DNA of 64,000 bases. Origin: an uncultured Chitinophaga sp. GTDB lineage: Bacteria > Planctomycetota > Planctomycetia > Planctomycetales > Planctomycetaceae. The DNA is taken from positions 21,788 through 85,787 of the forward strand of contig CAZIGZ010000008.1 of the NCBI GenBank assembly GCA_964538835.1. The letters run 5' to 3'. Shown here one piece after another: positions 27,026-40,977 of the stretch (position 1 is its first letter; the number at the start of each line of letters is the position of its first letter). A model generated the notes under the pieces. The model was given only the letters and a program-made list of their open reading frames with translations, was not told the DNA's origin and did not search any database. Made by a program: the position numbers and the translations under genes.

Positions 27026-28762
27026 CTAAGGCTGCTTCAGATGAGCATCGTGGAACAATTTTCGATTCTTCAGAAGCTGGTCATTCTCAGGCTCCCGTAA
27101 GAGGGCTTGATCCAGAATGTCGACAGCACGACCAAAATTGCCCAGTTGTGCTTCACAATTGGCGAGATTCCCAAGGGCTTCCACATTCGATGGATCGATC
27201 GTCAGCGCCTGCTCAAAGAGTCGTCTGGCTTCCGTCAGATCTCGATTGCGCATACAAAATCCCAGGTTGATAAGAGCACGATAATCCTCCGGCGTCTTCT
27301 CGACAGCCTGCCGAAGATACTCGACAGCTTCGTCTTCCCGGCCCTGATACAGAATGGCACTCCCAAGGGTTGTAAAGACCCTTCCTCTGGTCTGATTTTC
27401 CGGAAACGTCAGCGCCTTTCTGGCAACACGCTCGGCCTCAATCACGCGGTCTTCTACAAGCAGAGCTATTGCCAGCTGCTCATAGGCAAGGAAATTCTCG
27501 GGATCGACACGGATGCACTCCGTCCACAGGGAGATGCTGTTATTCCAGGCGGCAGCATATTGATATGCCAGAAAACCAAAGCTAGTGGCACCAAATAGAA
27601 AGAGAACAGTACACTCTTTCGTGCGAATCCAGGATTTGCTTTCAACAATTCTGCTGACTGCCAGAAACAATCCAATATGCGGAAAGTACATATATCGATC
27701 CGCTCGGGCCGCAGCTCCAAGTTGGATCAGACCGAGCACCGGAACAAGTGTACCCAGAAACCACAGCAGCCCAACGACAACACCGGGCACACGTCGGTAG
27801 CGGTAGCCAAGAATGATTACCACAATGACGACGGCACCGCACAAGGCCGTCTCTCCAGCAGAAACACCGTAGTAAGGATACCGGTAAAACGGGGAGAGCC
27901 GTATCGGCACTAACGACTGCAAAAGGTAGTAGCCCAGGCTCTGAACAGCATTCGCCAGACGCGTTGTCAGGGCAAGCTCAGAAAGTGATGAAACAGAACC
28001 TCCTGACAGTTGTGCCGAAAACGCCATGGCCAGGGCAGCAAATGAGATCAGAAAATAGAGAATGTGTGCGAAAAGGGATCGCACAGTTCTCCGCAGACTG
28101 AATCCGGATTCTCCGTCTCGCAGCGGAACGCAATCAAGCAGTACAAACAGAAAAGGCAGTGTCACAAGGAGTTGTTTGGAAAGCAGGCTGAGAGCGAAGA
28201 AAGAAAGGGAGAGTACCTTGCATATCATTCCTCCTCCCTGCCTCGCTTTCTCCCAGCTCAGGATTGAGGCCAGTCCGAAGAAGACCGCAAGAAGTCCTTT
28301 GCGCTCCGAGACCCAGCATACGGTTTCAACGTGCTGAGGGTGAATCCCGAACAGCAAACTGACCGCCACACAAAGGCTGATACTCTTCGTCCACTGGCCA
28401 ATTATCAGGCCAACGAGAATTGTGCTTGCCGTATGCAGGCAGAGGTTTGTGAAGTGCATGACAGAAGAATTGAGACCGAAGAAGTGGCTCTCCAGCATGT
28501 AGCTCAGCCAGGTCAGCGGCATCCAGTTGCTCACAGCGACTTCAGTAAATGCCCAGTGAAGCTTCTGGAATGAAATCCCTTGATTCACCTCCGGCCTGTG
28601 GGTAACGCAGTGCACATCATCCCAGTTCAGGAAGCTGGCCCACAGGTTTTGGATGTAGGGTATGGTCGTCACCACACTTACAATGAGCAAAGGCCAGATC
28701 AACGATACCGGCGCCAAATGCCTCGGGGCACTCGGCGTCGGTGCAGAGACTTGTCCGCTCAT
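27026..28762 (-). CDS. TMTC/DUF1736-like GT-C membrane glycosyltransferase fused to C-terminal TPR repeats (paralog 1)
   Basis: Multi-pass N-terminal domain with loop-1 FLNWDDV and HPQHVETVCWVSERKGLL. The C-terminal roughly 170 aa are TPR repeats. Start shares 1 nt with the upstream stop (TAATG). Confidence 0.75.
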   Translation of the reverse strand: MSGQVSAPTPSAPRHLAPVSLIWPLLIVSVVTTIPYIQNLWASFLNWDDVHCVTHRPEVNQGISFQKLHWAFTEVAVSNWMPLTWLSYMLESHFFGLNSSVMHFTNLCLHTASTILVGLIIGQWTKSISLCVAVSLLFGIHPQHVETVCWVSERKGLLAVFFGLASILSWEKARQGGGMICKVLSLSFFALSLLSKQLLVTLPFLFVLLDCVPLRDGESGFSLRRTVRSLFAHILYFLISFAALAMAFSAQLSGGSVSSLSELALTTRLANAVQSLGYYLLQSLVPIRLSPFYRYPYYGVSAGETALCGAVVIVVIILGYRYRRVPGVVVGLLWFLGTLVPVLGLIQLGAAARADRYMYFPHIGLFLAVSRIVESKSWIRTKECTVLFLFGATSFGFLAYQYAAAWNNSISLWTECIRVDPENFLAYEQLAIALLVEDRVIEAERVARKALTFPENQTRGRVFTTLGSAILYQGREDEAVEYLRQAVEKTPEDYRALINLGFCMRNRDLTEARRLFEQALTIDPSNVEALGNLANCEAQLGNFGRAVDILDQALLREPENDQLLKNRKLFHDAHLKQP

Positions 28763-31700
28763 TATTCCGACACTACCCGTTTATTGGATTTGGACCCTAC
28801 ATTATAGACGCTGAAATCGTACCCCTCTGTGCTTGCGAGAGCCACATCCTTTCCGGTCTGCGAGATAGACGAAATATCGAACGGTTCGTCAAGTTCGATT
28901 CTGGAAGACGTTACCGACTCAAAATTCCGGGTGACTTCGAAAATCTCACCGGTTTCTGCAAGGGCGACGAAATCAGCCTGCTCGCCGACAGACTGCACAT
29001 TCACAAAGGACTTACCCCCTTCCGCCTGGAGCAGTTTCCTTAGCTGCAGAGACTTAATGTCCAGAAAGTAACACCCCGTGGATGAGCAAAACGCCACGGT
29101 CGTCATGTCTTTCGAGAACCCTCCCCCAAAGAGACTGCCAATCTTTGGCTGCCGCGTGATCGCACTGACGTTGGCCGTTGCCACATCGCCGGATGTCAAG
29201 TCCGCAAGGGAAAGTTGTCCCGACGGGTCCAGCATCATCGCAATTGAAAAATCCGGACTGACCATACAGAACCCGGAAAATGCCCCCTTGATCTCATAGG
29301 TCTTCGTTGTTTCCAGTGTGACGGCATCAAGAACCTTCAATTGAGTTGAGGTATTGCCCTTTTCAAAGATGCAAATGGAGTTGCTGCTTTCATGAAAGAA
29401 CGAGCTGGTCAAGCCAGCAGAAAACTCCACGCTCGACTTGAGTTCTGCGGAGTAGTCATCCAATGGCTCCACACGCGACAACCCGTCGACACCAAGCAAT
29501 AAAACTCCTCCGTCCCGATCAATGAACACTTTTCGCGAACTTTCCGGCACCGCTCTTCGCCTGATCAGGCGAGGTTCTTCAGAAATGGACCATAGATCAA
29601 GGACACCCTGCTGGCGAAGGGCCGCCGCAATTCCTTTATCGCTGTCCACATCAAGGCTCATCAGCTTATCGACGAACAGTGTGCTTCCAGTGTCCGAACC
29701 GCCCCATGGAACATAGGTGTATGCCAGGTATGCTAAGCCGATGAATGCGAAACTCAGTACAGCCACGAGGATTTTGGATCCCCCGGGAATAGCACCCGCT
29801 AGAACTCCTGGCGTAAGCTTCGCCATGAGGCCGGAGAATCTCCGCTTCATGCGCTGAGAACGGATCCTGCCGGGACTGCTCCCCAGATCAATTAGTGTCT
29901 GCTCAGCCCCACGGCGGACCATTTTGTCCCCGTCTTCCAGGAGCCGTTCCACGGCCTCTTCCGCGCCTTCCAGTTTCAGCAGGCCAATCCCACGGACGGC
30001 CTGATATCGTACTTCCGGTGAAGAATCTTTCAGGACCCCCAACAACGTTGGCCCAGCGGCCGATTGTCCCAGACGACCCAGTGCGATGACGGACTGAAGC
30101 TTGACAACAGGGTGGTCCTCAACAGCCTCTTCAAGGACGCCCAGCGATCCTTTGTCCTGAAAGTCCCCAATTGCCTTTGCGCATGCGGCACGAACCGTTT
30201 CATCGGGATCCCGCTTCAGCATCTCACGCAATCGAGGGAGTTGTTTTTCCTGTTTCAGGACAGCCAGTTGTTCGACGCTTTGCCGACGGACACTCGGATT
30301 GTTGTCATCCAGCATGCGAACAAAGAGCGGGGCACTCGACGGGATCTTCAGCTTGCGAAGTGCCTTGAGCGCCAACTCACGAAAAGCGCCAGAGTCGCCC
30401 TCAACGTATCGAATCAAGACCGCGGACGCACTTTCACCGCCGTTTCGGTTCAATGCCGCAAGAAGATGTTCGACGGTGTTCGGATCGGATTCACTCTCCA
30501 GGGCTTTCGCGACCGGTCCGCCCAGTTCCGGCTCGTCCATGCGGGAGGCTGCCTGGGCTGCGCTACGACGAACGGTCAGATCCGGGTCCGAAAACAAGTT
30601 CGAAAGCAGGCTCACACTTTTCGGACTGTGGATCGTGGCAAGCGCTAGTGCGGCCTGGCTTCTTACCCGAGCATCGGTATCCTCCAGAGCGTCATTGATG
30701 TGCCCAATAATTCGCTTTTCGCCCGTTCGCACCAGTGCTTCCACCGCGGCTGCTCGCATCACGGCAGATTCATGCGAAACAAACTTCTCGAAGAATTCCC
30801 GGTGGGCGGCTCCAGTGAATCTCGACAACAGCGACACCGCAAAAGCGACAACATCGACGTCAGAGCTGTTACAGGCACTCAGCAGGAATTGCTCCCATGA
30901 TGCCTTTTCCTCGCTTTCCAGTTCTTCCACCGCCGACGTGACCACGGTTCGCAGCGAATTGTTGACCAGGCCTGCCGCAAGAATCACTCCTCGGACAGAC
31001 GGCTGCTTAATGCTGATGAGTGAGGCAACTGCAATCTCGACGACAGTGCCAGACTTGTCGCTCAGGAATCGGAGCAGCGGTACAGCCGCTTCCGCATAAG
31101 GAATCATGCCAAGAGCCTTCGCACAGGCTGCCCGAACTTCTTTCGACGGCTTGCTGCCAAAAGAACTGATGGTCTCGATGGCCGTCGGGGATCCCGTGTC
31201 CCCCAATTCCAGCAGGCGCTTTCGCACGGCTTCGATGTCGGTGGCCGGCGTTGCAAGAAGTCCGGCAATCTTCCTGGTGAGCAACCGAGGAGGCGCCTTC
31301 GGCAATTCTTCACGAGTCTCCAGGAGCTTTCGGAAAGCTACCTCACGGGCCTCCCTCAATCGAGCCAGATTTCGCTCATTCTGTTCTCGGACTCGCTCTG
31401 CGGCTTCTGCTTCCGGATTCGAAACAGGCTCCTGCACAATCGGTGCTGGAGTGACGGCGGAATCAGAAGCCGGGATCTGTCCGTTCTTCTTCTCCGAATC
31501 CAGTCGGATGACCATCGATCCTGATGCCACCGCAACGCCGGACGCGCTCGAAAAGGCCGGGATGAGTGGGGACGACGCTGTCATGTCCATCGAGACAAAC
31601 GGCTGCGATGTCGGTGGCGTCAACGCTACCGGCGGAGTTGCCGGGCCGCCCATTGGAGCATACTGGGCAGCCGGATAGGGCGTTTGCTGGTACTGAGGAT

Positions 31701-32985
31701 ACCCAGGATACGGAGCGGGGTAGGCGGACGGACCGCCGAATGCCGGTGCCATTTGCCCGCCGGCAGGAATATAGGCATTGGGGTCAGGACGAACCGGAGA
31801 TGCAACGGGATACGTTCCGGATGCCGACGGAGATGGCCAACCGGGGCCAATGACTCGCACATCAGACACGGAAGAACCATGACTGTGTGGAAAAAGCGAA
31901 TCTGATGAATGCGATCCCGACGACTGCGAGGCAGCTGAAAACACCGGATTTGAAGCGGACGAATCCTGAAGATTCGAACTAACGGATTCAAAAAAATTAA
32001 AATCTGCTATGGAATCACTTGGAGTTCCATGACTCTTGAACAACTGCTCGATCGAATGATCGGTTGTCCCGGCAGACTTCAGCAAGTCGGCAATCGCCCG
32101 CTCCCCGGTCTGTTCCATGTCAGATTTCATCATGGCATCCATCTCCAGCGACAACTTGTTCGTCATTGCCGACTGAGAAGGATTGATCTGACTCCCGGAC
32201 GAAGAAACTCCTGAAGCGGCTGAACCAGCGACATGGACCGGCTCACCAATCATTGAACCAAGCGACAATTGTCCCGACTCATCCATGGGAGAAGCGATTG
32301 GCGCTGGTTGTTCCGGTAGCGTTTGGCAAAACGCCAGCAGGTCAGATCGCCACTGAGACAGTGCTGGATTCTGAGAGCAGTCAATCCGCTCGAATTCGGT
32401 CATCCATCCATGACGATCAGTCAACGAGAGACGTCGTAATGCCTCCGTCGCGGACACTCGAAGCTTGTTATTCTCCACCGCGGCAAGCAGGACAGCTTCC
32501 GCACAAAAAAACTGTCCGGTGCTCAGCAATGCCTGCATTGCAGCATTGCGCACTCGGGACGAGCCATCTTTCAGCATCGGCAAAAGCAGATAGGCGGACA
32601 AAGAGTGCCGCAGCCTGCCCAGAGAAACCGCCACGGCCTGACGAACCTCACGACCTCGCGAAGTGGCGACCAGCAGAAGCGTACGCAGAATGGCCGGGTC
32701 ACGTGTTTCGCCAAGAGCCTGGATGATTCCGACGCGCACAGCAATCGCATCAGGAGGAACCGCCTGCAAACTTCCCATCAGCGGAGCAACCGCCGGCGAC
32801 GACGGAGACGGAATCATCTCCCGCTTCTGCTTGATCCATGATCGCAAACGATCAATGCTCTGATCCAGCGAACTGCCCGCAATCGTTGCGGAATTTTTCT
32901 GACTCGGCAGCAATCCTTGCCCGCATTCGGAACAGAACTTAGCAGTCTCGCTATTTTCCGCACCACATGTGGGGCAGCGCTTCAT
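28762..32985 (-). CDS. 1407-aa zinc-ribbon / HEAT-repeat / single-TM / beta-propeller-like protein
   Basis: N-terminal CPTCGAENSETAKFCSECG. Many PBS-lyase-type HEAT repeats (e.g. DPDETVRAACAKAIG, SSPEVRYQAVRGIG). S/P-rich region. TM ILVAVLSFAFIGLAYLAYTYV. About 330-aa beta-rich C-terminus. Confidence 0.75.
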   Translation of the reverse strand: MKRCPTCGAENSETAKFCSECGQGLLPSQKNSATIAGSSLDQSIDRLRSWIKQKREMIPSPSSPAVAPLMGSLQAVPPDAIAVRVGIIQALGETRDPAILRTLLLVATSRGREVRQAVAVSLGRLRHSLSAYLLLPMLKDGSSRVRNAAMQALLSTGQFFCAEAVLLAAVENNKLRVSATEALRRLSLTDRHGWMTEFERIDCSQNPALSQWRSDLLAFCQTLPEQPAPIASPMDESGQLSLGSMIGEPVHVAGSAASGVSSSGSQINPSQSAMTNKLSLEMDAMMKSDMEQTGERAIADLLKSAGTTDHSIEQLFKSHGTPSDSIADFNFFESVSSNLQDSSASNPVFSAASQSSGSHSSDSLFPHSHGSSVSDVRVIGPGWPSPSASGTYPVASPVRPDPNAYIPAGGQMAPAFGGPSAYPAPYPGYPQYQQTPYPAAQYAPMGGPATPPVALTPPTSQPFVSMDMTASSPLIPAFSSASGVAVASGSMVIRLDSEKKNGQIPASDSAVTPAPIVQEPVSNPEAEAAERVREQNERNLARLREAREVAFRKLLETREELPKAPPRLLTRKIAGLLATPATDIEAVRKRLLELGDTGSPTAIETISSFGSKPSKEVRAACAKALGMIPYAEAAVPLLRFLSDKSGTVVEIAVASLISIKQPSVRGVILAAGLVNNSLRTVVTSAVEELESEEKASWEQFLLSACNSSDVDVVAFAVSLLSRFTGAAHREFFEKFVSHESAVMRAAAVEALVRTGEKRIIGHINDALEDTDARVRSQAALALATIHSPKSVSLLSNLFSDPDLTVRRSAAQAASRMDEPELGGPVAKALESESDPNTVEHLLAALNRNGGESASAVLIRYVEGDSGAFRELALKALRKLKIPSSAPLFVRMLDDNNPSVRRQSVEQLAVLKQEKQLPRLREMLKRDPDETVRAACAKAIGDFQDKGSLGVLEEAVEDHPVVKLQSVIALGRLGQSAAGPTLLGVLKDSSPEVRYQAVRGIGLLKLEGAEEAVERLLEDGDKMVRRGAEQTLIDLGSSPGRIRSQRMKRRFSGLMAKLTPGVLAGAIPGGSKILVAVLSFAFIGLAYLAYTYVPWGGSDTGSTLFVDKLMSLDVDSDKGIAAALRQQGVLDLWSISEEPRLIRRRAVPESSRKVFIDRDGGVLLLGVDGLSRVEPLDDYSAELKSSVEFSAGLTSSFFHESSNSICIFEKGNTSTQLKVLDAVTLETTKTYEIKGAFSGFCMVSPDFSIAMMLDPSGQLSLADLTSGDVATANVSAITRQPKIGSLFGGGFSKDMTTVAFCSSTGCYFLDIKSLQLRKLLQAEGGKSFVNVQSVGEQADFVALAETGEIFEVTRNFESVTSSRIELDEPFDISSISQTGKDVALASTEGYDFSVYNVGSKSNKRVVSE

Positions 32986-32994
32986 ATCAATGAG

Positions 32995-33040
32995 CCCAAA
33001 AACAAAGAAATGTCCGGCCCCAACAGAGTTGAAGCCGGAC
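32995..33040 (-). terminator. Intrinsic terminator after DUF1559 copy 1
   Basis: Minus-strand RNA GUCCGGCUUCAAC-UCU-GUUGGGGCCGGAC forms a 13-bp stem with 2 G-U pairs, followed by AUUUCUUUGUUUUU. Confidence 0.6.
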
Positions 33041-33071
33041 CTTGAATTTTGTCAAAGACTTCCCTCGAAGA

Positions 33072-34325
33072 TTACTCTTCGAATGATGCCTTGGCAAACT
33101 TGGTTGGGTCTGTCAGCCAAACGCCACAGAACACGTCGAATGAGTTGATTTCGCATGGGCCAGGAGTATAGCCGTCTGCAAGCGCGTCGAAAGAACCATC
33201 CGTCGGGATCGTAAACCCTGGGTTGAAGAAATTATCGCCGTTGGTGTCAAACAGCGTCTTAACACTGCCGTCAGCCATCAGCAGATTTGCACCACCACGG
33301 TGAATCGCATACCAGTCACGCGTATCCTGCAGAACAACACCTGGATTTGCAGCCTGCTGAATATCAGCCTCGACTGGAGTTTCACCAACCTGTGGATACT
33401 TCTTAGGAACGTAGAGGTTGACAGCAAACCCTTCAAGGATTGTCGTGTCACCACCATCAAGCAACTTAATTCGGCCGCCTGAAACACGAGACGGTCCGTC
33501 ATTAGCAACTTCTGCCAGTCGGACACCAGCCTGCAACGTGCCATTGATTGTGGTTGCCAGGATCGCTTCTTTCGTATCACCAGGAGCAGCGTCGCCCAGC
33601 AGCGGAATTGAGCTGGCTGGAACATCAGATCGGCTGATCTGAACCTGAGTCAGAGGACCGGTGCAACGAGGAGCATCGTCTGCGGTCGTAACAAGGCTCT
33701 TACAGCCGCTGCCAGCCATCAGAGCGTAAAGCGTGACGTTCGTGGCTGTTGAATTTACTGAAGAAACGAGATTCTGACCGCGAGTCATGAACCAGCTGCT
33801 TGCGTAGTTTGTGTTGTAGCCTTTTTCAATGTAGGTTGCCAGAACAGTTGCGCGATCAGCGTTGGTAGTGGCGGTCAGCAGGGCTGATGTGAGCGGACCC
33901 GTGGTTTCACGAGACTTCGGCGTTCGAGAATTGTTGCTTGAAGTATTTGACGACTTCACCATGTCGTTGAACTTTTCGTTCGACTTCAGTTCGCTGCTTG
34001 GGCACAGCATCTGCGATGGCAGCCCGCCCTTGACAGCAACCACGTTGCCAACCCAGCTAAACAGTGTCGGGTCCCCGTCGCGAATCCAGTCGAACTGACC
34101 AGAGCAGATTCGCTTTGCAGGATCGCTGTCGCTCCATGCGTACAGTGCAATACCGAACTGACGCAGGTTGTTCTTACACTGTGCACTTCGTGCTGCTTCA
34201 CGAGCAGACTGAATCGCTGGCAGAATCAGAGCCATCAGGATCGCGATAATTGCAATCACAACCAGCAGCTCGATCAGAGTGAAACCCTTACGACGGGCTT
34301 CCTGAATCAAATTACCCTTAAACAT
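33072..34325 (-). CDS. DUF1559 / H-X9-DG prepilin-like protein (copy 1)
   Basis: [56 protein letters not shown] is a prepilin-type N-terminal cleavage/methylation motif. [12 protein letters not shown] is the H-X9-DG motif. ATG 34325 is preferred over the 59-codon ORF extension. Confidence 0.85.
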
Positions 34326-34975
34326 CCGTTTCACGTTTCTGTCCTCTACACAAGAAAACTGAAAACACACACAAAAGAAACATTGACCAACCACCGCCAG
34401 AACGGGCCAAGCCCTGACGAAACCCCCGCAGTGATGTCGCGACCAACACTGCATTTTCTCCAACACGGATACGCGATGTTTCGTAACGTAAAACAAAGGC
34501 ATCCAAGATCAGAAGACTCCGCTTCTGACTGAGACCGCTCCTAACTGTCTCTCCCCGATACTTTACCGGGCTGCGTTAATCGCTGATGAAGCCTGTGTGA
34601 AAAGAAAGATTTCCCGAAAACTCTTCAATGGAAGAACCCGACACGTCGGTGAGGGATGGAAACCACCTTGATTCTCAGGGGTTGTGCCTCACTGACGCAA
34701 CAGGATGAGATGATCTCAACAGGCCGCCATGCGACGACATTTTCTTCTCGACCAGAATTCTCGACCTGCACTGTGAAGAAAAGATTAATCGCACCGGGGA
34801 AATTTTCGAAAAATCGAATTTCGAAAGCGATGCTCCGCCATGTTTCGCAAGTGCAACGCCATCAATGACTTATGTTGCCTTCAGGAAACCGGGAGAGCAT
34901 TGGCAAGGGCATGAGTGGCCGGCGAAATTGCTTGATCAGCGCCGGCAGGCCGCAACGGCAGACTCCGGCCGGAAG

Positions 34976-35119
34976 AATTGGCGGGATTGGCGGAGGATGC
35001 GGATGATGTTATCGCATCGATAACATCGCTCGACAAGGCCGTCCTGCAGCGCTCGAAATCTTAGCAGCCATGGATACTGCCCATTTGCATGCAATGAGGC
35101 AATTCTGCGTGCCTCTTTC
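34976..35119 (-). pseudogene. Relic of the 3' end of a GT2 paralog (homologous to 37113-37256)
   Basis: Hand alignment gives 144 bp with no indels and 9 mismatches. The stop TAA is changed to CAA. 4 of the 9 changes are synonymous in the GT2 frame. Confidence 0.8.
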
Positions 35120-35140
35120 CGCTTTTCTCAGAATGTTGCG

Positions 35141-35277
35141 GCGAAATCAAGCATTTCGTTAGCGGTCTCCACAGTCGAGACGGCGTACGCCATGAAGAGC
35201 ATTCGATAGAGCGGCATGAGAAACGTGGCTCTTTTTTGAGCCCGTTTCAGGGACCGACCGCCGATCGCTACAACAAT
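35141..35277 (-). pseudogene. Relic of an internal C-terminal segment of a GT2 paralog (homologous to 39944-40083)
   Basis: Hand alignment of the 35158-35277 core against 39961-40083 gives 11 mismatches and one in-frame 3-bp indel. The extra 17 bp (35141-35157 vs 39944-39960) align more weakly. It joins repeat copy 2 through CAAT microhomology. Confidence 0.75.
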
Positions 35278-35280
35278 GAG

Positions 35281-35326
35281 CCCAAAAACAAAGAAATGTC
35301 CGGCCCCAACAGAGTTGAAGCCGGAC
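35281..35326 (-). terminator. Intrinsic terminator after DUF1559 copy 2
   Basis: Same hairpin and U-tract as 32995-33040, shifted by 2286 bp. Confidence 0.6.
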
Positions 35327-35357
35327 CTTGAATTTTGTCAAAGACTTCCCTCGAAGA

Positions 35358-36611
35358 TTACTCTTCGAATGATGCCTTGGCAAACTTGGTTGGGTCTGTC
35401 AGCCAAACGCCACAGAACACGTCGAATGAGTTGATTTCGCATGGGCCAGGAGTATAGCCGTCTGCAAGCGCGTCGAAAGAACCATCCGTCGGGATCGTAA
35501 ACCCTGGGTTGAAGAAATTATCGCCGTTGGTGTCAAACAGCGTCTTAACACTGCCGTCAGCCATCAGCAGATTTGCACCACCACGGTGAATCGCATACCA
35601 GTCACGCGTATCCTGCAGAACAACACCTGGATTTGCAGCCTGCTGAATATCAGCCTCGACTGGAGTTTCACCAACCTGTGGATACTTCTTAGGAACGTAG
35701 AGGTTGACAGCAAACCCTTCAAGGATTGTCGTGTCACCACCATCAAGCAACTTAATTCGGCCGCCTGAAACACGAGACGGTCCGTCATTAGCAACTTCTG
35801 CCAGTCGGACACCAGCCTGCAACGTGCCATTGATTGTGGTTGCCAGGATCGCTTCTTTCGTATCACCAGGAGCAGCGTCGCCCAGCAGCGGAATTGAGCT
35901 GGCTGGAACATCAGATCGGCTGATCTGAACCTGAGTCAGAGGACCGGTGCAACGAGGAGCATCGTCTGCGGTCGTAACAAGGCTCTTACAGCCGCTGCCA
36001 GCCATCAGAGCGTAAAGCGTGACGTTCGTGGCTGTTGAATTTACTGAAGAAACGAGATTCTGACCGCGAGTCATGAACCAGCTGCTTGCGTAGTTTGTGT
36101 TGTAGCCTTTTTCAATGTAGGTTGCCAGAACAGTTGCGCGATCAGCGTTGGTAGTGGCGGTCAGCAGGGCTGATGTGAGCGGACCCGTGGTTTCACGAGA
36201 CTTCGGCGTTCGAGAATTGTTGCTTGAAGTATTTGACGACTTCACCATGTCGTTGAACTTTTCGTTCGACTTCAGTTCGCTGCTTGGGCACAGCATCTGC
36301 GATGGCAGCCCGCCCTTGACAGCAACCACGTTGCCAACCCAGCTAAACAGTGTCGGGTCCCCGTCGCGAATCCAGTCGAACTGACCAGAGCAGATTCGCT
36401 TTGCAGGATCGCTGTCGCTCCATGCGTACAGTGCAATACCGAACTGACGCAGGTTGTTCTTACACTGTGCACTTCGTGCTGCTTCACGAGCAGACTGAAT
36501 CGCTGGCAGAATCAGAGCCATCAGGATCGCGATAATTGCAATCACAACCAGCAGCTCGATCAGAGTGAAACCCTTACGACGGGCTTCCTGAATCAAATTA
36601 CCCTTAAACAT
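35358..36611 (-). CDS. DUF1559 / H-X9-DG prepilin-like protein (copy 2, identical)
   Basis: Identical translation to 33072-34325. Confidence 0.85.
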
Positions 36612-37114
36612 CCGTTTCACGTTTCTGTCCTCTACACAAGAAAACTGAAAACACACACAAAAGAAACATTGACCAACCACCGCCAGAACGGGCCAAGCCC
36701 TGACGAAACCCCCGCAGTGATGTCGCGACCAACACTGCATTTTCTCCAACACGGATACGCGATGTTTCGTAACGTAAAACAAAGGCATCCAAGATCAGAA
36801 GACTCCGCTTCTGACTGAGACCGCTCCTAACTGTCTCTCCCCGATACTTTACCGGGCTGCGTTAATCGCTGATGAAGCCTGTGTGAAAAGAAAGATTTCC
36901 CGAAAACTCTTCAATGGAAGAACCCGACACGTCGGTGAGGGATGGAAACCACCTTGATTCTCAGGAATTGTCCCGCAATAACGCTGCCTGTTGAGATCAA
37001 GTCAACAGACCGTCGCGATCCAAGTGACCGTACGCGCCCGTGGATGTAGCGGTCACGGACTGCAACCCAAAACCGGGTGTGCTCAGGAGGCAACGGTAGG
37101 TTGTCGCGGGTAAA

Positions 37115-37951
37115 TTAGCGGGATTGGCGGAGGGAGCGGATGATGCTGTCGCATCGATAACATCGCTCGACAAGGGCGTCCTGCAGCGCTCGAAATCTCA
37201 GCAGCCACGGATACTGCCCATTTGCATGCAGTGAGGCAATTCTGCGTGCCTCTTTCAACTGTTCACGGTATCGAACCGACGATTTGCTGTGTCCGTGAAT
37301 TCGGAAGCTGGCGACCGTCGCATCCAGATACCGACCCGGGGTCGTTCGCCAGAATCTCAGCCACAGGTCGTAGTCCATGGCGAGGTGAAGGTCCAGATTC
37401 AGATCTCCGGTACGCGAAAGGAACGGCGTCCGCCAGAAGACTCCCATTTGAGAAATCCAGTTGGCCCAAAGCAGTCCTCGAAACGTCAATCGTTTCAGGT
37501 AGTAGTTCTTGACACCTGTGATCGTTCGGCGAATTTCATGGCCATCACGATCAATCATATCGACTCGACCAAAAACCCATTCCACATTCGCGTCACGAAA
37601 CTCCTCCAGTACCCTGCTGAGTGCTCGTGGCTTCAAGATATCGTCGGAGTTCAGCCATCCGGAGATTTTTCCGGTTGCCATTGCAAGCCCGCGATTAACA
37701 GCATCTGACTGCCCGCTGTCTTTACCTGAGGTCACGACAATATCAGGACCATAACTCGCCAGCAGGTCGAGCGTCTCGTCTGTCGAGCCGCCATCCATGA
37801 CGATGAGCTGCAGCGAAAGGCTGGAAGTTCTCTGTGACAAAACGGAGTCAATCGCCGTACAAAGAAACTCCGCCTGATTCAATGTGGGCATCACGATCGT
37901 AAAGTCGGGGGAGTCCTGATTCATGTGTACTTCACCCAGACAGTCCGCCAT
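37115..37951 (-). CDS. GT2 glycosyltransferase
   Basis: FTIVMPTLNQAEFLCTAIDSVLSQ...LIVMDGGSTDET...NSDD. ATG 37924 is an alternative start. Confidence 0.85.
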   Translation of the reverse strand: MADCLGEVHMNQDSPDFTIVMPTLNQAEFLCTAIDSVLSQRTSSLSLQLIVMDGGSTDETLDLLASYGPDIVVTSGKDSGQSDAVNRGLAMATGKISGWLNSDDILKPRALSRVLEEFRDANVEWVFGRVDMIDRDGHEIRRTITGVKNYYLKRLTFRGLLWANWISQMGVFWRTPFLSRTGDLNLDLHLAMDYDLWLRFWRTTPGRYLDATVASFRIHGHSKSSVRYREQLKEARRIASLHANGQYPWLLRFRALQDALVERCYRCDSIIRSLRQSR

Positions 37952-38035
37952 TGTTCACCGAGAATCCACTCCAGAGACACACCATGCGTCCTTACGCACA
38001 AATCGCTGGCCCGAAAACTGAGTTGCGGATGTGTC

Positions 38036-39883
38036 TCACTCATTCTGTATCAATGGGGTCACTGCCTGCAAATTGGCATGCGCTTCGGGAAGATCTGCCA
38101 ATTCGATCGCGACCCGATAACAATCGGCCGCTCTGCCAAACTGCCGCTGACGAGCAAATACGTTTCCCAGATTTACGTACGCCGGAGCATTGCGTGAGTC
38201 AAATCGAATCGCACTGGAAAACAACTCCGCTGCTTTGGCTGGGTCTTGTTCAAGCAGGCCGAGATTGTTGAATGCCTCCGACGAACTCGGGTTATAGGTA
38301 ATCGCCCGATGGAAGCACTGCTTCGCCTCGTTCGGATTTCTGACTGCCAGCATCGCATTCCCGAGCATGAGCCAGAGGCTGGGGTCTGTTTCGTCGGCCT
38401 CAAGCCCTGCCCTGACGAAAACGACCGCTCGAGTCGTTTCCCCGTTTCGGAGCAATTCTCTTGCGGAATTTACGATCGAATCACTACTTTCAGGGATGCA
38501 CCGCAGTGCTTCCGTGTAATGATAAACAGCCTGTTCGACCTTCTGCTCATCACAATAGAAGTCTCCAAGTGCCCGGTGCGCCAGGTAGTTGTTCTCAGGC
38601 TCGATGAGCAATGCGTGCTGGAAGAGGGTCTCGTCGCTCTTCCAGATTCCGACAACATGGTCACACTGCCACAGCAGCCCGATCGACACCATGAACGGGA
38701 CACATTTCAACGTCTGCCTGACCGCTCTTAGTGAACGCTTACCATCTAGCCTGAGGCAGACGGATTCGAAAGAATAGCAGGCAAGCACTGCGAGCCCGAT
38801 TGACGGAATATAGGCGTATCGGTCAGCCATCGACTGGAGGCCGACCTGCACGATACCGATGATTGGGATCGCGGCGATAACGAACCATAGCCAGCCGGCC
38901 AGCAGGAAAGACCAGTCTCTTCGCAGAAAAATAGCAATCGCTGAGATACTTATCAATAGCACGCCCGCAGCGCAGATCACCCATGACGGCCATCCGCCGG
39001 GAGGCATCGGATAAGATATAGAAAATTGCGACGGCCAGAAAAACGCTCCTGTATATCTCACATAAGATACAATCGCGTTGGTCAGCCGAAAAGGCAGAGG
39101 CAAGCCTGTCAGCTTCACGACGTTGTTGCTCTGAGCGAGAATTGTCAGAGCCGCGACGGCAACTGATATGAGCAGGAACGGCGTGATTCGAGGGACTGTC
39201 TTCTTCAGCCAGGCTGCATTCAGATTGAACCGGACAGACCATGCCTCCAGAATCATCAGCAGCAGTGGAACTGTGACAAGCATTCCTTTTGACATCAGAC
39301 CCGTCAAACACAACACGCAACTCAATCCGTACCAAAATCCGCGAAGCTTCGTCGAGTGAATGAAGCTCTGGTCATAGGCGCAGACTGTCAGCATCAAAAA
39401 AAACGTGCTCAGCACATCCTTTCTTTCGGAGATCCAGACGACGGATTCAACATGCTGGGGGTGTATGCCAAAAATCACTGCTGCCCAGAATGCCGGGACA
39501 ATCCGACCGGTTCGCCGGGACAACCAGAACAGCAGGAGACAGGCATTCGCTGAATGAAGCAGAATGTTGCCCGCGCGAAAGACCTCAGGACGAGCTCCGA
39601 AGAATCGCTTGTCGATCATCCACGAAACCCAGGTTACGGGATGCCAATTGTCGAAATGAAACCTGAAGAAAGCTTCTCGCAGAGATTCCGCACTGAAAGG
39701 GTCGACAAGCGGCCTGCACTGCATATACGTGGCATCGTCGAGTCTGTGAAAGCCGTAGGAAAGCGACTTCATGAACGGCATTGCAGCGACAGCTGCAACG
39801 AATAGAAAGAGAATCCATCGAAGCTGACGCATCGACAGCCACTCGGGCAGTGTCCTGGCAGGTTGAGTCTCAGGCGTTCTCAT
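38036..39883 (-). CDS. TMTC/DUF1736-like GT-C + TPR protein (paralog 2)
   Basis: Loop-1 HRLDDATY, HPQHVESVVWISERKDVL, multi-pass N-terminal domain and C-terminal TPRs. ATGA overlap with the upstream GT2. Confidence 0.75.
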   Translation of the reverse strand: MRTPETQPARTLPEWLSMRQLRWILFLFVAAVAAMPFMKSLSYGFHRLDDATYMQCRPLVDPFSAESLREAFFRFHFDNWHPVTWVSWMIDKRFFGARPEVFRAGNILLHSANACLLLFWLSRRTGRIVPAFWAAVIFGIHPQHVESVVWISERKDVLSTFFLMLTVCAYDQSFIHSTKLRGFWYGLSCVLCLTGLMSKGMLVTVPLLLMILEAWSVRFNLNAAWLKKTVPRITPFLLISVAVAALTILAQSNNVVKLTGLPLPFRLTNAIVSYVRYTGAFFWPSQFSISYPMPPGGWPSWVICAAGVLLISISAIAIFLRRDWSFLLAGWLWFVIAAIPIIGIVQVGLQSMADRYAYIPSIGLAVLACYSFESVCLRLDGKRSLRAVRQTLKCVPFMVSIGLLWQCDHVVGIWKSDETLFQHALLIEPENNYLAHRALGDFYCDEQKVEQAVYHYTEALRCIPESSDSIVNSARELLRNGETTRAVVFVRAGLEADETDPSLWLMLGNAMLAVRNPNEAKQCFHRAITYNPSSSEAFNNLGLLEQDPAKAAELFSSAIRFDSRNAPAYVNLGNVFARQRQFGRAADCYRVAIELADLPEAHANLQAVTPLIQNE

Positions 39884-40977
39884 TTGGTGCCCAACTGTGA
39901 CGTTTGGCCTCGAAGTCTGCTGACAAGCATCAGCAAGCCTTCCGCGAGATCAACCATTCTGTTAGCGGTCTCCACATTGGAGACGGCATACGGCATGAAG
40001 AGCATTCGATAGAGCGGCATAAGAAGCGTTGCTCTTTTTTGAATCGCCCGCTTCAGGGACCCACCGCCAATCGCTACAGCAATATCGATCATGCTGCCTG
40101 CCTGGCGTCGATACCCAAATGCCCCAATGTTCCATGCGGACTCTACGATGCGCCAGCTTAACGCTTCCGGCATTCCCTGAATCTCGAACATTCCGGGGTG
40201 TGACCTTAGCTGCATTTCAAGGATCTGCAGCACTTCAAGGAAACTGCGACTGCTGTTGTGTGAGAGGCAGTTTGCATGAGCACGACGAGAATAGAGTCGA
40301 TCAGACAAAAAACATCCGGTTCCGCTGCCTGCCAGTGTCAGCAGGAGCGAAAAGTCGGTTGCAACCCTAAAGCACTCCGGCAGTCCGCCTGAATCCTGCC
40401 AGGCAGACTTGCGAAAGACCATGCCCGGAAACCCAGTCGGGAACATGCTGTGCTTAACAGCCAGGAGCGTTCCCAGACTGTTTTCCATGAGAAACGCGGC
40501 GGTGCTTCTTCCTTTCGTCATTCCCCGGACCAGAGAGTCGCGTTCAAAATTGCGCTGGGCCACACTACCCCATCGATTTGGTAGTCCGAAGCGACTGGCA
40601 CCGTGCGCCACATACTGAAGCTGTGGGTACTTCAGCAGCATCTCGTGACATCGCTCCAGCTTCTTCGAGGCAAAGATGTCGTCCTGCTCAAGCACTGCAA
40701 TGAACTCTCCAGAGGCAGCGGCGATGCCAATGTTCAGGGGCTGAGCCGGCGAACCAGAATTGCGTTCTGTGGAGAAGAAACGAATGGGCAGGCTCAGCGC
40801 ATGACGAGCAGCCCAGTCTTCTGCGATCTCGACTGAGGCATCGGATGAGCAGTCATCAACAAGGATAACCTCATCCGGTAGATGCGTTTGACACTTTACG
40901 GAGTCAAGTGCCTCTGAAAGATAGCGACTTCCATTGTAAATCGGAATGACAACAGAAAGCGGACAGGCACGCTGCAT
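39880..40977 (-). CDS. GT2 glycosyltransferase
   Basis: LSVVIPIYNGSRYLSEALDSVKCQT...VILVDDCSSDAS...LEQDD. Confidence 0.85.
   Translation of the reverse strand: MQRACPLSVVIPIYNGSRYLSEALDSVKCQTHLPDEVILVDDCSSDASVEIAEDWAARHALSLPIRFFSTERNSGSPAQPLNIGIAAASGEFIAVLEQDDIFASKKLERCHEMLLKYPQLQYVAHGASRFGLPNRWGSVAQRNFERDSLVRGMTKGRSTAAFLMENSLGTLLAVKHSMFPTGFPGMVFRKSAWQDSGGLPECFRVATDFSLLLTLAGSGTGCFLSDRLYSRRAHANCLSHNSSRSFLEVLQILEMQLRSHPGMFEIQGMPEALSWRIVESAWNIGAFGYRRQAGSMIDIAVAIGGGSLKRAIQKRATLLMPLYRMLFMPYAVSNVETANRMVDLAEGLLMLVSRLRGQTSQLGTK

Follow-up and report, generated by a model that had tools for sequence, protein, structure and literature searches.

A tandem pair of identical DUF1559 pilin-like genes in one lineage of Planctomycetaceae, probably kept uniform by homologous recombination

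A 64,000-nucleotide (nt) stretch of contig CAZIGZ010000008.1 (GenBank assembly GCA_964538835.1; an uncultured freshwater member of the Planctomycetaceae), hereafter the window, carries the gene of a pilin-like protein of the DUF1559 family twice, in direct copies separated by a spacer of 594 bp. An earlier note, made from the letters of this DNA alone, had described the repeat as an apparently perfect 1692-bp duplication of a complete transcription unit, old in origin and since homogenised by gene conversion, or else renewed by a recent second event. Does the repeat exist outside the assembly and, if so, how did its two copies come to be the same? The analysis reported here supports, with a probability that we put at about 0.8, a real, lineage-specific tandem duplicate of one transcription unit, the copies of which are kept identical by homologous recombination.

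The repeat in the window and in natural populations

Direct comparison of window positions 32988–34679 with 35274–36965 gave 1692 matches in 1692 positions, at an offset of 2286. Scattered mismatches across the unit were looked for by exact alignment and none was found, so that the duplication proved as perfect as it had seemed. The run is maximal at this offset, the bases flanking both of its ends being different, and identity at offset 2286 falls from 100% within the unit to about 25%, the background level, a few dozen bases beyond. Both copies hold the same minus-strand open reading frame (ORF; 33072–34502 and 35358–36788). If the source contig derives from short reads, it could mask a few true differences between the copies, a number that public reads limit to about two. 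The neighbouring gene for a HEAT-repeat protein of 1407 amino acids (aa) is referred to as g1407, and the intergenic regions upstream of copies 1 and 2 as IG-1 and IG-2; coordinates of all features are collected in Table 1.

The region was compared with Logan contigs from independent river, lake, groundwater and drinking-water metagenomes. The four edges of the unit (g1407–unit, unit–IG-1, spacer–unit and unit–IG-2) were present as separate contigs at the depth of the flanks (1x), whereas the interior of the unit was a single unbranched contig at about twice that depth. Interior depth was 10.4 in run X1, against 4.5–6.6 for flanks and edges, and 16.5 in X4, against 6.3–9.8. The corresponding values in X20 were 36.7 for the interior and 17.1 and 15.5 for the flanks, and in X10/X11 they were 90.7 for the interior, 44.3 and 46.3 for long flank contigs and 32.7–54.6 for edge contigs. 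Contigs across the g1407–unit junction were recovered from runs X1, X2, X4, X10 and X20, and those across the spacer–unit and unit–IG-2 junctions from several runs as well as from L161, L165, L167 and L175. With the spacer joined to the unit at either of its ends, a single simple arrangement is left, namely g1407, unit, spacer, unit and the GT2 glycosyltransferase gene, in that order. Read depth, which had been proposed as a check for an assembly duplication of a single copy, was thus that of two copies, and the repeat is not an assembly artefact.

Concerted evolution in three lineages

No close strain was found among GTDB representative genomes or JGI metagenomes, the best matches to the pilin-like protein having 65% and 71% aa identity, and synteny with close strains was therefore taken from short contigs of Logan and JGI assemblies. 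The protein (P0001) and its variants, a cluster with four strain variants that carry 4–5 amino-acid changes, were encoded on 17 such contigs. Three lineages were distinguished. Lineage A is the type found in the window (contigs L161–L163; runs X1, X2, X3, X8 and X9). Lineage B has 36–40 differences from the window in the unit; about 35 fixed B differences are shared by contigs attached to g1407 (L164, L166, L169 and L177) and by contigs attached to the spacer or IG-2 (L165, L167, L168 and L175). Its unit was collapsed into a contig of exactly 32990–34672 in three samples, and at 45x it was one 1683-nt contig at 2.0x. Lineage C, from X4 and metatranscriptomes, has a third haplotype with 26 differences that overlap those of B only in part; again, the unit was a 2x contig and all four edges were present. 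Substitutions in the unit thus number 26–40 among the three lineages, as against none between the copies in A and at most about two in B.

The spacer contains two relics of GT2 genes, which differ by 9–14% from their sources. A, B and C, which are 2–5% apart, all share this spacer and its joints. The duplication hence predates the split of the lineages and is old, as had been supposed. Copies drifting since the split of A and B would differ at about 36 sites, and at a divergence of 1% the probability of finding no difference in 1692 nt is 4 × 10−8. As the duplication is older than the split and the copies are near-identical in each lineage, recombination must have homogenised the copies after the split, at least once per lineage. 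The homogenisation postulated in the earlier note is thereby borne out, through lineage-specific variants that are present in both copies (26–40 sites between lineages). Paralogs of one genome that resemble each other more than they resemble the orthologs of related lineages are, on the sequences compared here, the pattern of concerted evolution.

The limits of the identical tract were compared among lineages. The left edge is the original joint of the duplication, with its CAAT microhomology. The right edge lies at 34679/36965 in A and at 34672/36958 in B and C, where copy 2 has a 1-nt deletion; its position varies by no more than 9 nt among the lineages, and the mRNA begins about 20 nt downstream of it. 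An edge fixed across lineages looks like the limit of usable homology rather than the chance end of one tract. The right boundary, at which identity does drop abruptly as had been observed (from 100% to 67% over the adjoining 48 nt), is thus better read as such a limit than as the end of a single gene-conversion tract. The 1.7-kb units would have kept exchanging by RecA-type gene conversion or by cycles of unequal crossing-over, no exchange passing the left joint, where homology ends, or the right edge, where similarity drops to 67%. A new variant arising in one copy would then be either erased or passed to the other.

Divergence between contigs of A and B is a mosaic along window positions 32400–37300. 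No difference was found in the 147 nt of IG-2 (36966–37112) or in the 84 nt after the stop codon, and divergence amounted to about 2% in the spacer, 2.1–2.2% in the coding sequence (CDS) of the unit, 2.6–4.7% in the leader and about 5% in the first 500 nt of g1407. This indicates frequent recombination between co-existing strains.

Several observations weigh against the interpretation of the locus as an old pair under continued homogenisation. No individual read or contig covers both copies, whose tandem order was worked out from junctions and depth, and Logan contigs, in which small bubbles are popped, could mask about two differences between the copies. Divergence is much greater in the intergenic regions (67% identity in 48 nt, no alignment thereafter) than in the relics beyond them (86–91% identity), which a single duplication with uniform decay does not predict, so that an extra event of replacement or remodelling must be assumed. 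In run X19, a sample of about 4x depth, the unit was at 1x over its left 540 nt (32988–33526), which were linked to the spacer, and at 2x over 33498–34672; noise at low depth could account for this, as could a strain with partial homogenisation, in which copy 1 lacks that left part or differs there. Contig L164 (JGI 3300047489) joins g1407, unit and IG-2 without the spacer, in a structure equivalent to 32473–32987 plus the unit plus 36966–37089, and may represent either a natural one-copy (pop-out) haplotype or a shortcut of the assembler through the repeat.

A further minor contig, of depth 5.6 in X4 and possibly present in X2, joins IG-1 at 34899 to 37113. Its 28 nt fit the intact 3′ end of GT2 better than the relic, and the contig may come from a variant spacer that has lost 76 nt or from a haplotype without copy 2. 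The main conclusion is unchanged by this contig, by X19, by L164 or by the 114-nt promoter-region allele described below.

Recombination between the copies may have proceeded by conversion or by crossing-over. That homogenisation was achieved mainly by unequal crossing-over between sister chromosomes, in cycles of one, two and three copies, rather than by non-reciprocal conversion, appears rather unlikely. Direct repeats of this length (1.7 kb) and spacing (0.6 kb) lend themselves well to it, L164 has the exact structure of its one-copy product and, in every lineage, the tract stops where homology does; on the other hand, depth was about 2.0x in all deeper samples, with no sign of subpopulations with one or three copies, and L164 is itself possibly an assembler shortcut. 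Gene conversion and unequal crossing-over lead to the same end state and are indistinguishable with present data.

Far less probable is a very recent second duplication, or a one-off replacement of one copy, with no ongoing exchange. The absence of any difference in the genome of the window would, taken by itself, suit a young copy. A single recent event, offered earlier as the alternative to homogenisation, cannot explain three lineages each with its own haplotype in both copies: lineages 26–40 sites apart have joints and spacer in common, the copies being identical within each, whereas a single event before the split would have left copies that diverged later, and independent re-duplications with identical joints are implausible.

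An artefact of assembly, with one genomic copy written twice or the units of two strains joined, is harder still to sustain. An exact 1.7-kb repeat is the expected product of a mis-resolved graph loop, both copies are spanned by no read, and the path through L164 has no spacer. Against this, the spacer–unit joint and the unit–IG-1 edge were found as contigs of their own in at least eight independent runs from several studies, at flank depth and with the interior at 2.0x, and attachment of the spacer to both ends of the unit can be explained only by a tandem pair or by a 2.3-kb circle of equal abundance in all samples. Finally, purifying selection on the protein alone, which does act on the gene as judged by the 22 synonymous changes among the 28 coding differences between A and B, is refuted as the cause of identity and has next to no chance of being right, since the copies agree at every synonymous site, throughout the 345-nt leader and in the 84 nt that follow the stop codon, that is, at silent and non-coding sites of classes that vary between lineages (leader 2.6–4.7%, CDS 2.1–2.2%).

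Origin of the pair and its transcribed region

Table 1. Features of the duplicated locus (window coordinates).
Feature	Position	Strand	Basis or remark
Copy 1 of the 1692-bp unit	32988..34679	-	Ancestral position; HEAT-repeat gene immediately downstream
Copy 2 of the 1692-bp unit	35274..36965	-	Exact match to copy 1
CDS, copy 1 (420-aa prepilin-leader / DUF1559 / H-X9-DG protein)	33072..34334	-	P0001, 100% identical
CDS, copy 2 (product identical to that of copy 1)	35358..36620	-	Unit identity and ORFs
Terminator-like hairpin, copy 1	33012..33040	-	Between CDS and ATG of the HEAT-repeat gene; 13-bp stem, 8 GC pairs, ATTTCTTTGT tail
Terminator-like hairpin, copy 2	35298..35326	-	Same 13-bp hairpin and T-rich tail after the CDS
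5′ untranslated region (UTR), about 325 nt	34335..34658 (copy 1), 36621..36944 (copy 2)	-	High-depth RNA contig, 348 in X26
25-nt motif CATCCCTCACCGACGTGTCGGGTTC at the 5′ end of the RNA contig	34634..34658, 36920..36944	-	Two matches in the window against 0 expected
Promoter-proximal block, copy 1	34680..34727	-	67% like 36966-37013; just upstream of the mRNA 5′ end
Promoter-proximal block, copy 2	36966..37013	-	Counterpart of 34680-34727
Unalignable part of the copy 1 upstream region	34728..34945	.	218 nt against 71 nt in IG-2 (global alignment)
Relic of GT2 3′ end	34946..35134	-	Source 37084-37271; includes about 30 nt downstream of the GT2 stop codon
Relic of internal 3′ part of second GT2 gene (about 135 nt)	35141..35273	-	Source 39944-40079
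Novel joint of the tandem duplication	35270..35279	.	CAAT microhomology at 35274-35277
Intact sources of the relics	37115..40977	-	GT2 37115-37951, TPR membrane protein 38036-39883, GT2 39880-40977 (ORFs, Pfam)
Conserved partner gene g1407 (1407 aa, zinc ribbon and HEAT repeats)	28762..32985	-	Pfam; adjoins the pilin-like gene at about 38 related loci

The relics that had been noticed in the spacer do exist. Positions 34976–35134 are 91% identical to 37113–37271 in an ungapped alignment of 159 nt (86–87% with gaps, over 182–189 nt), and positions 35141–35277 are 87–89% identical to 39944–40083. Both relics are direct in order and orientation and collinear with their sources, from which an internal deletion of 2.7 kb follows. 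The donor end (40080–40083) and the start of the unit (32988–32991) have the 4 bp CAAT in common, and 40083 is joined to 32988 at 35273/35274. With collinear sides and a short shared sequence, the joint has the appearance of a microhomology-mediated tandem duplication.

The order of duplication, deletion and decay would probably have been as follows. From an ancestral order of GT2, TPR protein, GT2, pilin-like gene and HEAT-repeat gene, all on the minus strand, a 4.8-kb segment (at present 35274–40083) would have been tandemly duplicated by an illegitimate join at the 4-bp CAAT. A deletion of 2.7 kb in the copy adjoining the HEAT-repeat gene would then have spared only the pilin unit with the intergenic region upstream of it and two fragments of glycosyltransferase genes, after which the fragments would have decayed to 86–91% of their sources and the intergenic regions been remodelled.

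The extent of the transcript was examined in metatranscriptome contigs. The abundant RNA contig has its 5′ end at 34658/36944, the first base of the 25-nt motif, and no abundant RNA was found beyond this point in either intergenic region. At least the −35 part of the promoter thus lies outside the identical unit, which consists of the transcribed region plus about 20 nt and is not a complete promoter-to-terminator unit. The complete transcription unit first described therefore holds as regards the CDS and terminator pattern and fails as regards the promoter. The upstream sequence of about 354 bp given with it is right for an ATG start at 34325, except that about 325 of these 345–354 nt are 5′ UTR. 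The terminator was confirmed as a pattern, a 13-bp hairpin with a T-rich tail being present in both copies, and the depth of RNA contigs fell about 4- to 20-fold from the pilin-like gene to g1407 (X25–X27). A search of Rfam gave no match in the unit or its flanks, folding of the leader was not unusual (z = −1.3), and a scan of 32700–37300 for promoters of the sigma-70 type found none.

Expression, proposed in the earlier note as a further check, was high as judged by RNA depth in metatranscriptome contigs, at about 4–40 times that of the neighbours. In X26, contig depth was 348–534 for the pilin-like gene, 13–26 for g1407, 8.7 for the spacer and 5.5–5.8 for the TPR gene. Values for the pilin-like gene were 98–129 in X25 and 29–36 in X27, with 6.4 and 3.5, respectively, for g1407, and 40–47 in X28, with about 4.6 for other neighbours. 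Contig depth is a poor measure of expression and carry-over of DNA is possible, but the contrast was consistent across the four metatranscriptomes.

Upstream of the transcript the copies part company. The flanks can still be aligned beyond the right edge, as had been seen, with 32 ungapped matches in 48 (67%) between 34680–34727 and 36966–37013, a value that none of 200,000 shuffles reached. Past these 48 nt the two regions cannot be aligned, and good similarity is regained only at the GT2 relic. A second match to the segment 34728–34945 was found neither in the rest of the window nor in the fetched loci, and it contains no convincing ORF. Comparison of IG-1 and IG-2 with the upstream regions of the closest relatives, by which they might have been polarised, revealed no usable similarity. 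Palindromes and repeats are present in IG-1 at 34698–34727 (CAACAGG...TGAGATGATCTCA...CAACAGG) and in IG-2 at 36977–37004 (CCTGTTGA-GATCAAG-TCAACAG), and are possible candidates for regulator-binding sites.

In distant relatives the 25-nt motif CATCCCTCACYGACGTKTCGGGTTC is kept at the nucleotide level in another intergenic region (L084, 18909–18933; L083, 12228–12252; L090, 10020–10044), about 200 nt upstream of a small ORF and an aminotransferase cluster; one possibility is an element common to transcription starts or leaders. A population allele, found in DNA run X5 and RNA runs X25, X27 and X28, has the 83 nt at 34623–34705 (possibly also 36909–36965) swapped for 114 nt that start with TTTTCAGAGGCTCCCTCACCAACACGCTGA and rejoins IG-1 at 34706, thus spanning the transcript start and the promoter region. 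A simple inversion of 34623–34705 was rejected as its origin: the reverse complement fails to match the first 30 nt of the allele, and nothing but a motif of about 12 nt reappears in the opposite orientation.

The protein, its partners and related systems

The gene call on record for P0001 gives a protein of 420 aa with a GTG start at 34334; exact-protein look-ups returned this form and no record of readings of 418 aa or 476 aa. The prepilin leader, DUF1559 domain and H-X9-DG motif recognised earlier hold against family models. The leader matches PF07963 (E = 5.4e-9) and TIGR02532 (34 bits, cutoff 16.3) and has the prepilin-type cleavage/methylation motif (G|FTLIE). DUF1559 matches PF07596 (E = 5e-18; 66.5 bits, cutoff 23.3), and H345-X9-D355G356 matches TIGR04294 (25.8 bits, cutoff 19), with H345, D355 and G356 invariant across 42 homologues. 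Sequence matches to pilins in the PDB were confined to residues 8–72, the pilin-type N-terminal helix (best E = 6e-8). The AlphaFold2 model (predicted local distance difference test 88.6, predicted template modelling score 0.85) has an N-terminal helix, residues 20–70, and a large alpha/beta domain. From sequence and model, the long N-terminal alpha-1 helix is predicted to be homologous to the helices of type IV pilins and pseudopilins. Foldseek with this model gave no match in the PDB at E below 1, hence no solved structural relative of the globular DUF1559 domain at that threshold.

DUF1559 is the largest paralog family of planctomycetes, numbering 68 proteins in P. limnophila, of which two are essential (PMC10632474), and 74 in R. 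baltica (PMC2754498). The present protein has the N-terminal methylation motif, DUF1559 domain and H-X9-DG motif of the family and belongs to an orthologous lineage with a fixed partner, the giant zinc-ribbon/HEAT protein followed by a TPR membrane protein. Within this orthologous lineage, an identical tandem pair was found only here. The two copies are the only prepilin-type genes of the window, which holds no other that could act as a donor in conversion.

In about 38 related loci of Planctomycetaceae, a single orthologue of the pilin-like gene lies directly upstream of the orthologue of the 1407-aa protein, often with a TPR membrane protein next to it. Comparison with syntenic loci, one of the checks proposed at the outset, thus found single copies in these relatives and the haplotype of the lineage in both copies in the strain contigs. 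In the closest relatives (72–78% aa identity) the gene is single-copy and has no glycosyltransferases upstream, so that both the duplication and its juxtaposition with glycosylation genes are specific to this lineage. The location inside a glycosylation array, as first described, is accordingly true of this lineage, whereas relatives have the gene beside the HEAT-repeat gene without upstream glycosyltransferases.

The trio of pilin-like gene, zinc-ribbon/HEAT protein (1300–1480 aa) and TPR membrane protein, at 27026–34334 of the window, is conserved in order and strand in these Planctomycetaceae loci down to about 37% pilin identity (including L002, L004–L007, L081–L090 and L178–L180), which suggests a functional module for this DUF1559 subfamily. 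Two paralogous TPR proteins (38036–39883 and 27026–28762; about 29% identity) flank the pilin/HEAT pair among the glycosyltransferases. Their N-terminal multi-pass membrane halves of about 450 aa had no Pfam match, the TPR domain being C-terminal. These proteins, together with the S/T-rich stretch of the pilin-like protein, hint at protein glycosylation.

Dosage selection on the gene is plausible but unproven: it would fit the high RNA depth and the fact that both copies have long been kept intact, but recombination between 1.7-kb repeats needs no selection. Equally open is a reading in which the copies have two different promoters. That the pair amounts to one mRNA under two control regions, possibly kept different by selection, is a tentative proposal, more doubtful than not. 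If it were true, the cell would keep the product identical while regulating the copies separately, and the replaceable 114-nt promoter-proximal allele would add a further layer of expression variation for an abundant surface-type protein.

The locus provides a clean natural example of bacterial concerted evolution, read from public metagenomes, in which three co-existing lineages each carry their own haplotype in both copies. The scar of its birth (joint, deletion and relics) is still legible, so that a single locus allows the age of the duplication to be set against how recently the copies exchanged sequence. It also singles out, among DUF1559 proteins, one that is very highly transcribed in situ, has conserved partners and is present in two intact copies, and is thus a good first candidate for functional work. 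Concerted evolution is a well-known process, found here in a new place, and no new mechanism is involved.

In the pilE/pilS system of Neisseria, silent partial cassettes donate variant segments and diversify one expressed gene. Pilin-type genes are common to both cases, as may be non-reciprocal recombination between repeated copies. Unlike in Neisseria, two complete copies of expressed type are made uniform here, and the window contains no variant cassettes.

Comparable, too, are tufA and tufB of Salmonella and E. coli, which undergo concerted evolution by RecA-dependent gene conversion (PMC5485169). Like the pilin-like pair, these are highly expressed, near-identical duplicates with tracts bounded by homology and with flanks that are unrelated or diverged; they are kept alike by conversion (PMC5485169), as the pilin-like pair may be. 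By contrast, the tuf copies are ancient and far apart on the chromosome, whereas the pilin copies are direct, 0.6 kb apart and restricted to one species-level lineage; moreover, the pilin unit takes in the whole 5′ UTR and the terminator, and unequal crossing-over is also possible for it. Long-lasting concerted evolution of prokaryotic paralogs has been described for ammonia-oxidation genes and rRNA operons (PMC6053082, PMC8022953). Unlike these, the pilin-like protein is not a component of a core pathway. As in those paralogs, the pilin copies are more alike within a genome than are orthologs between lineages; there the pattern is seen between species and over hundreds of millions of years, and here among strains that are about 2–5% apart.

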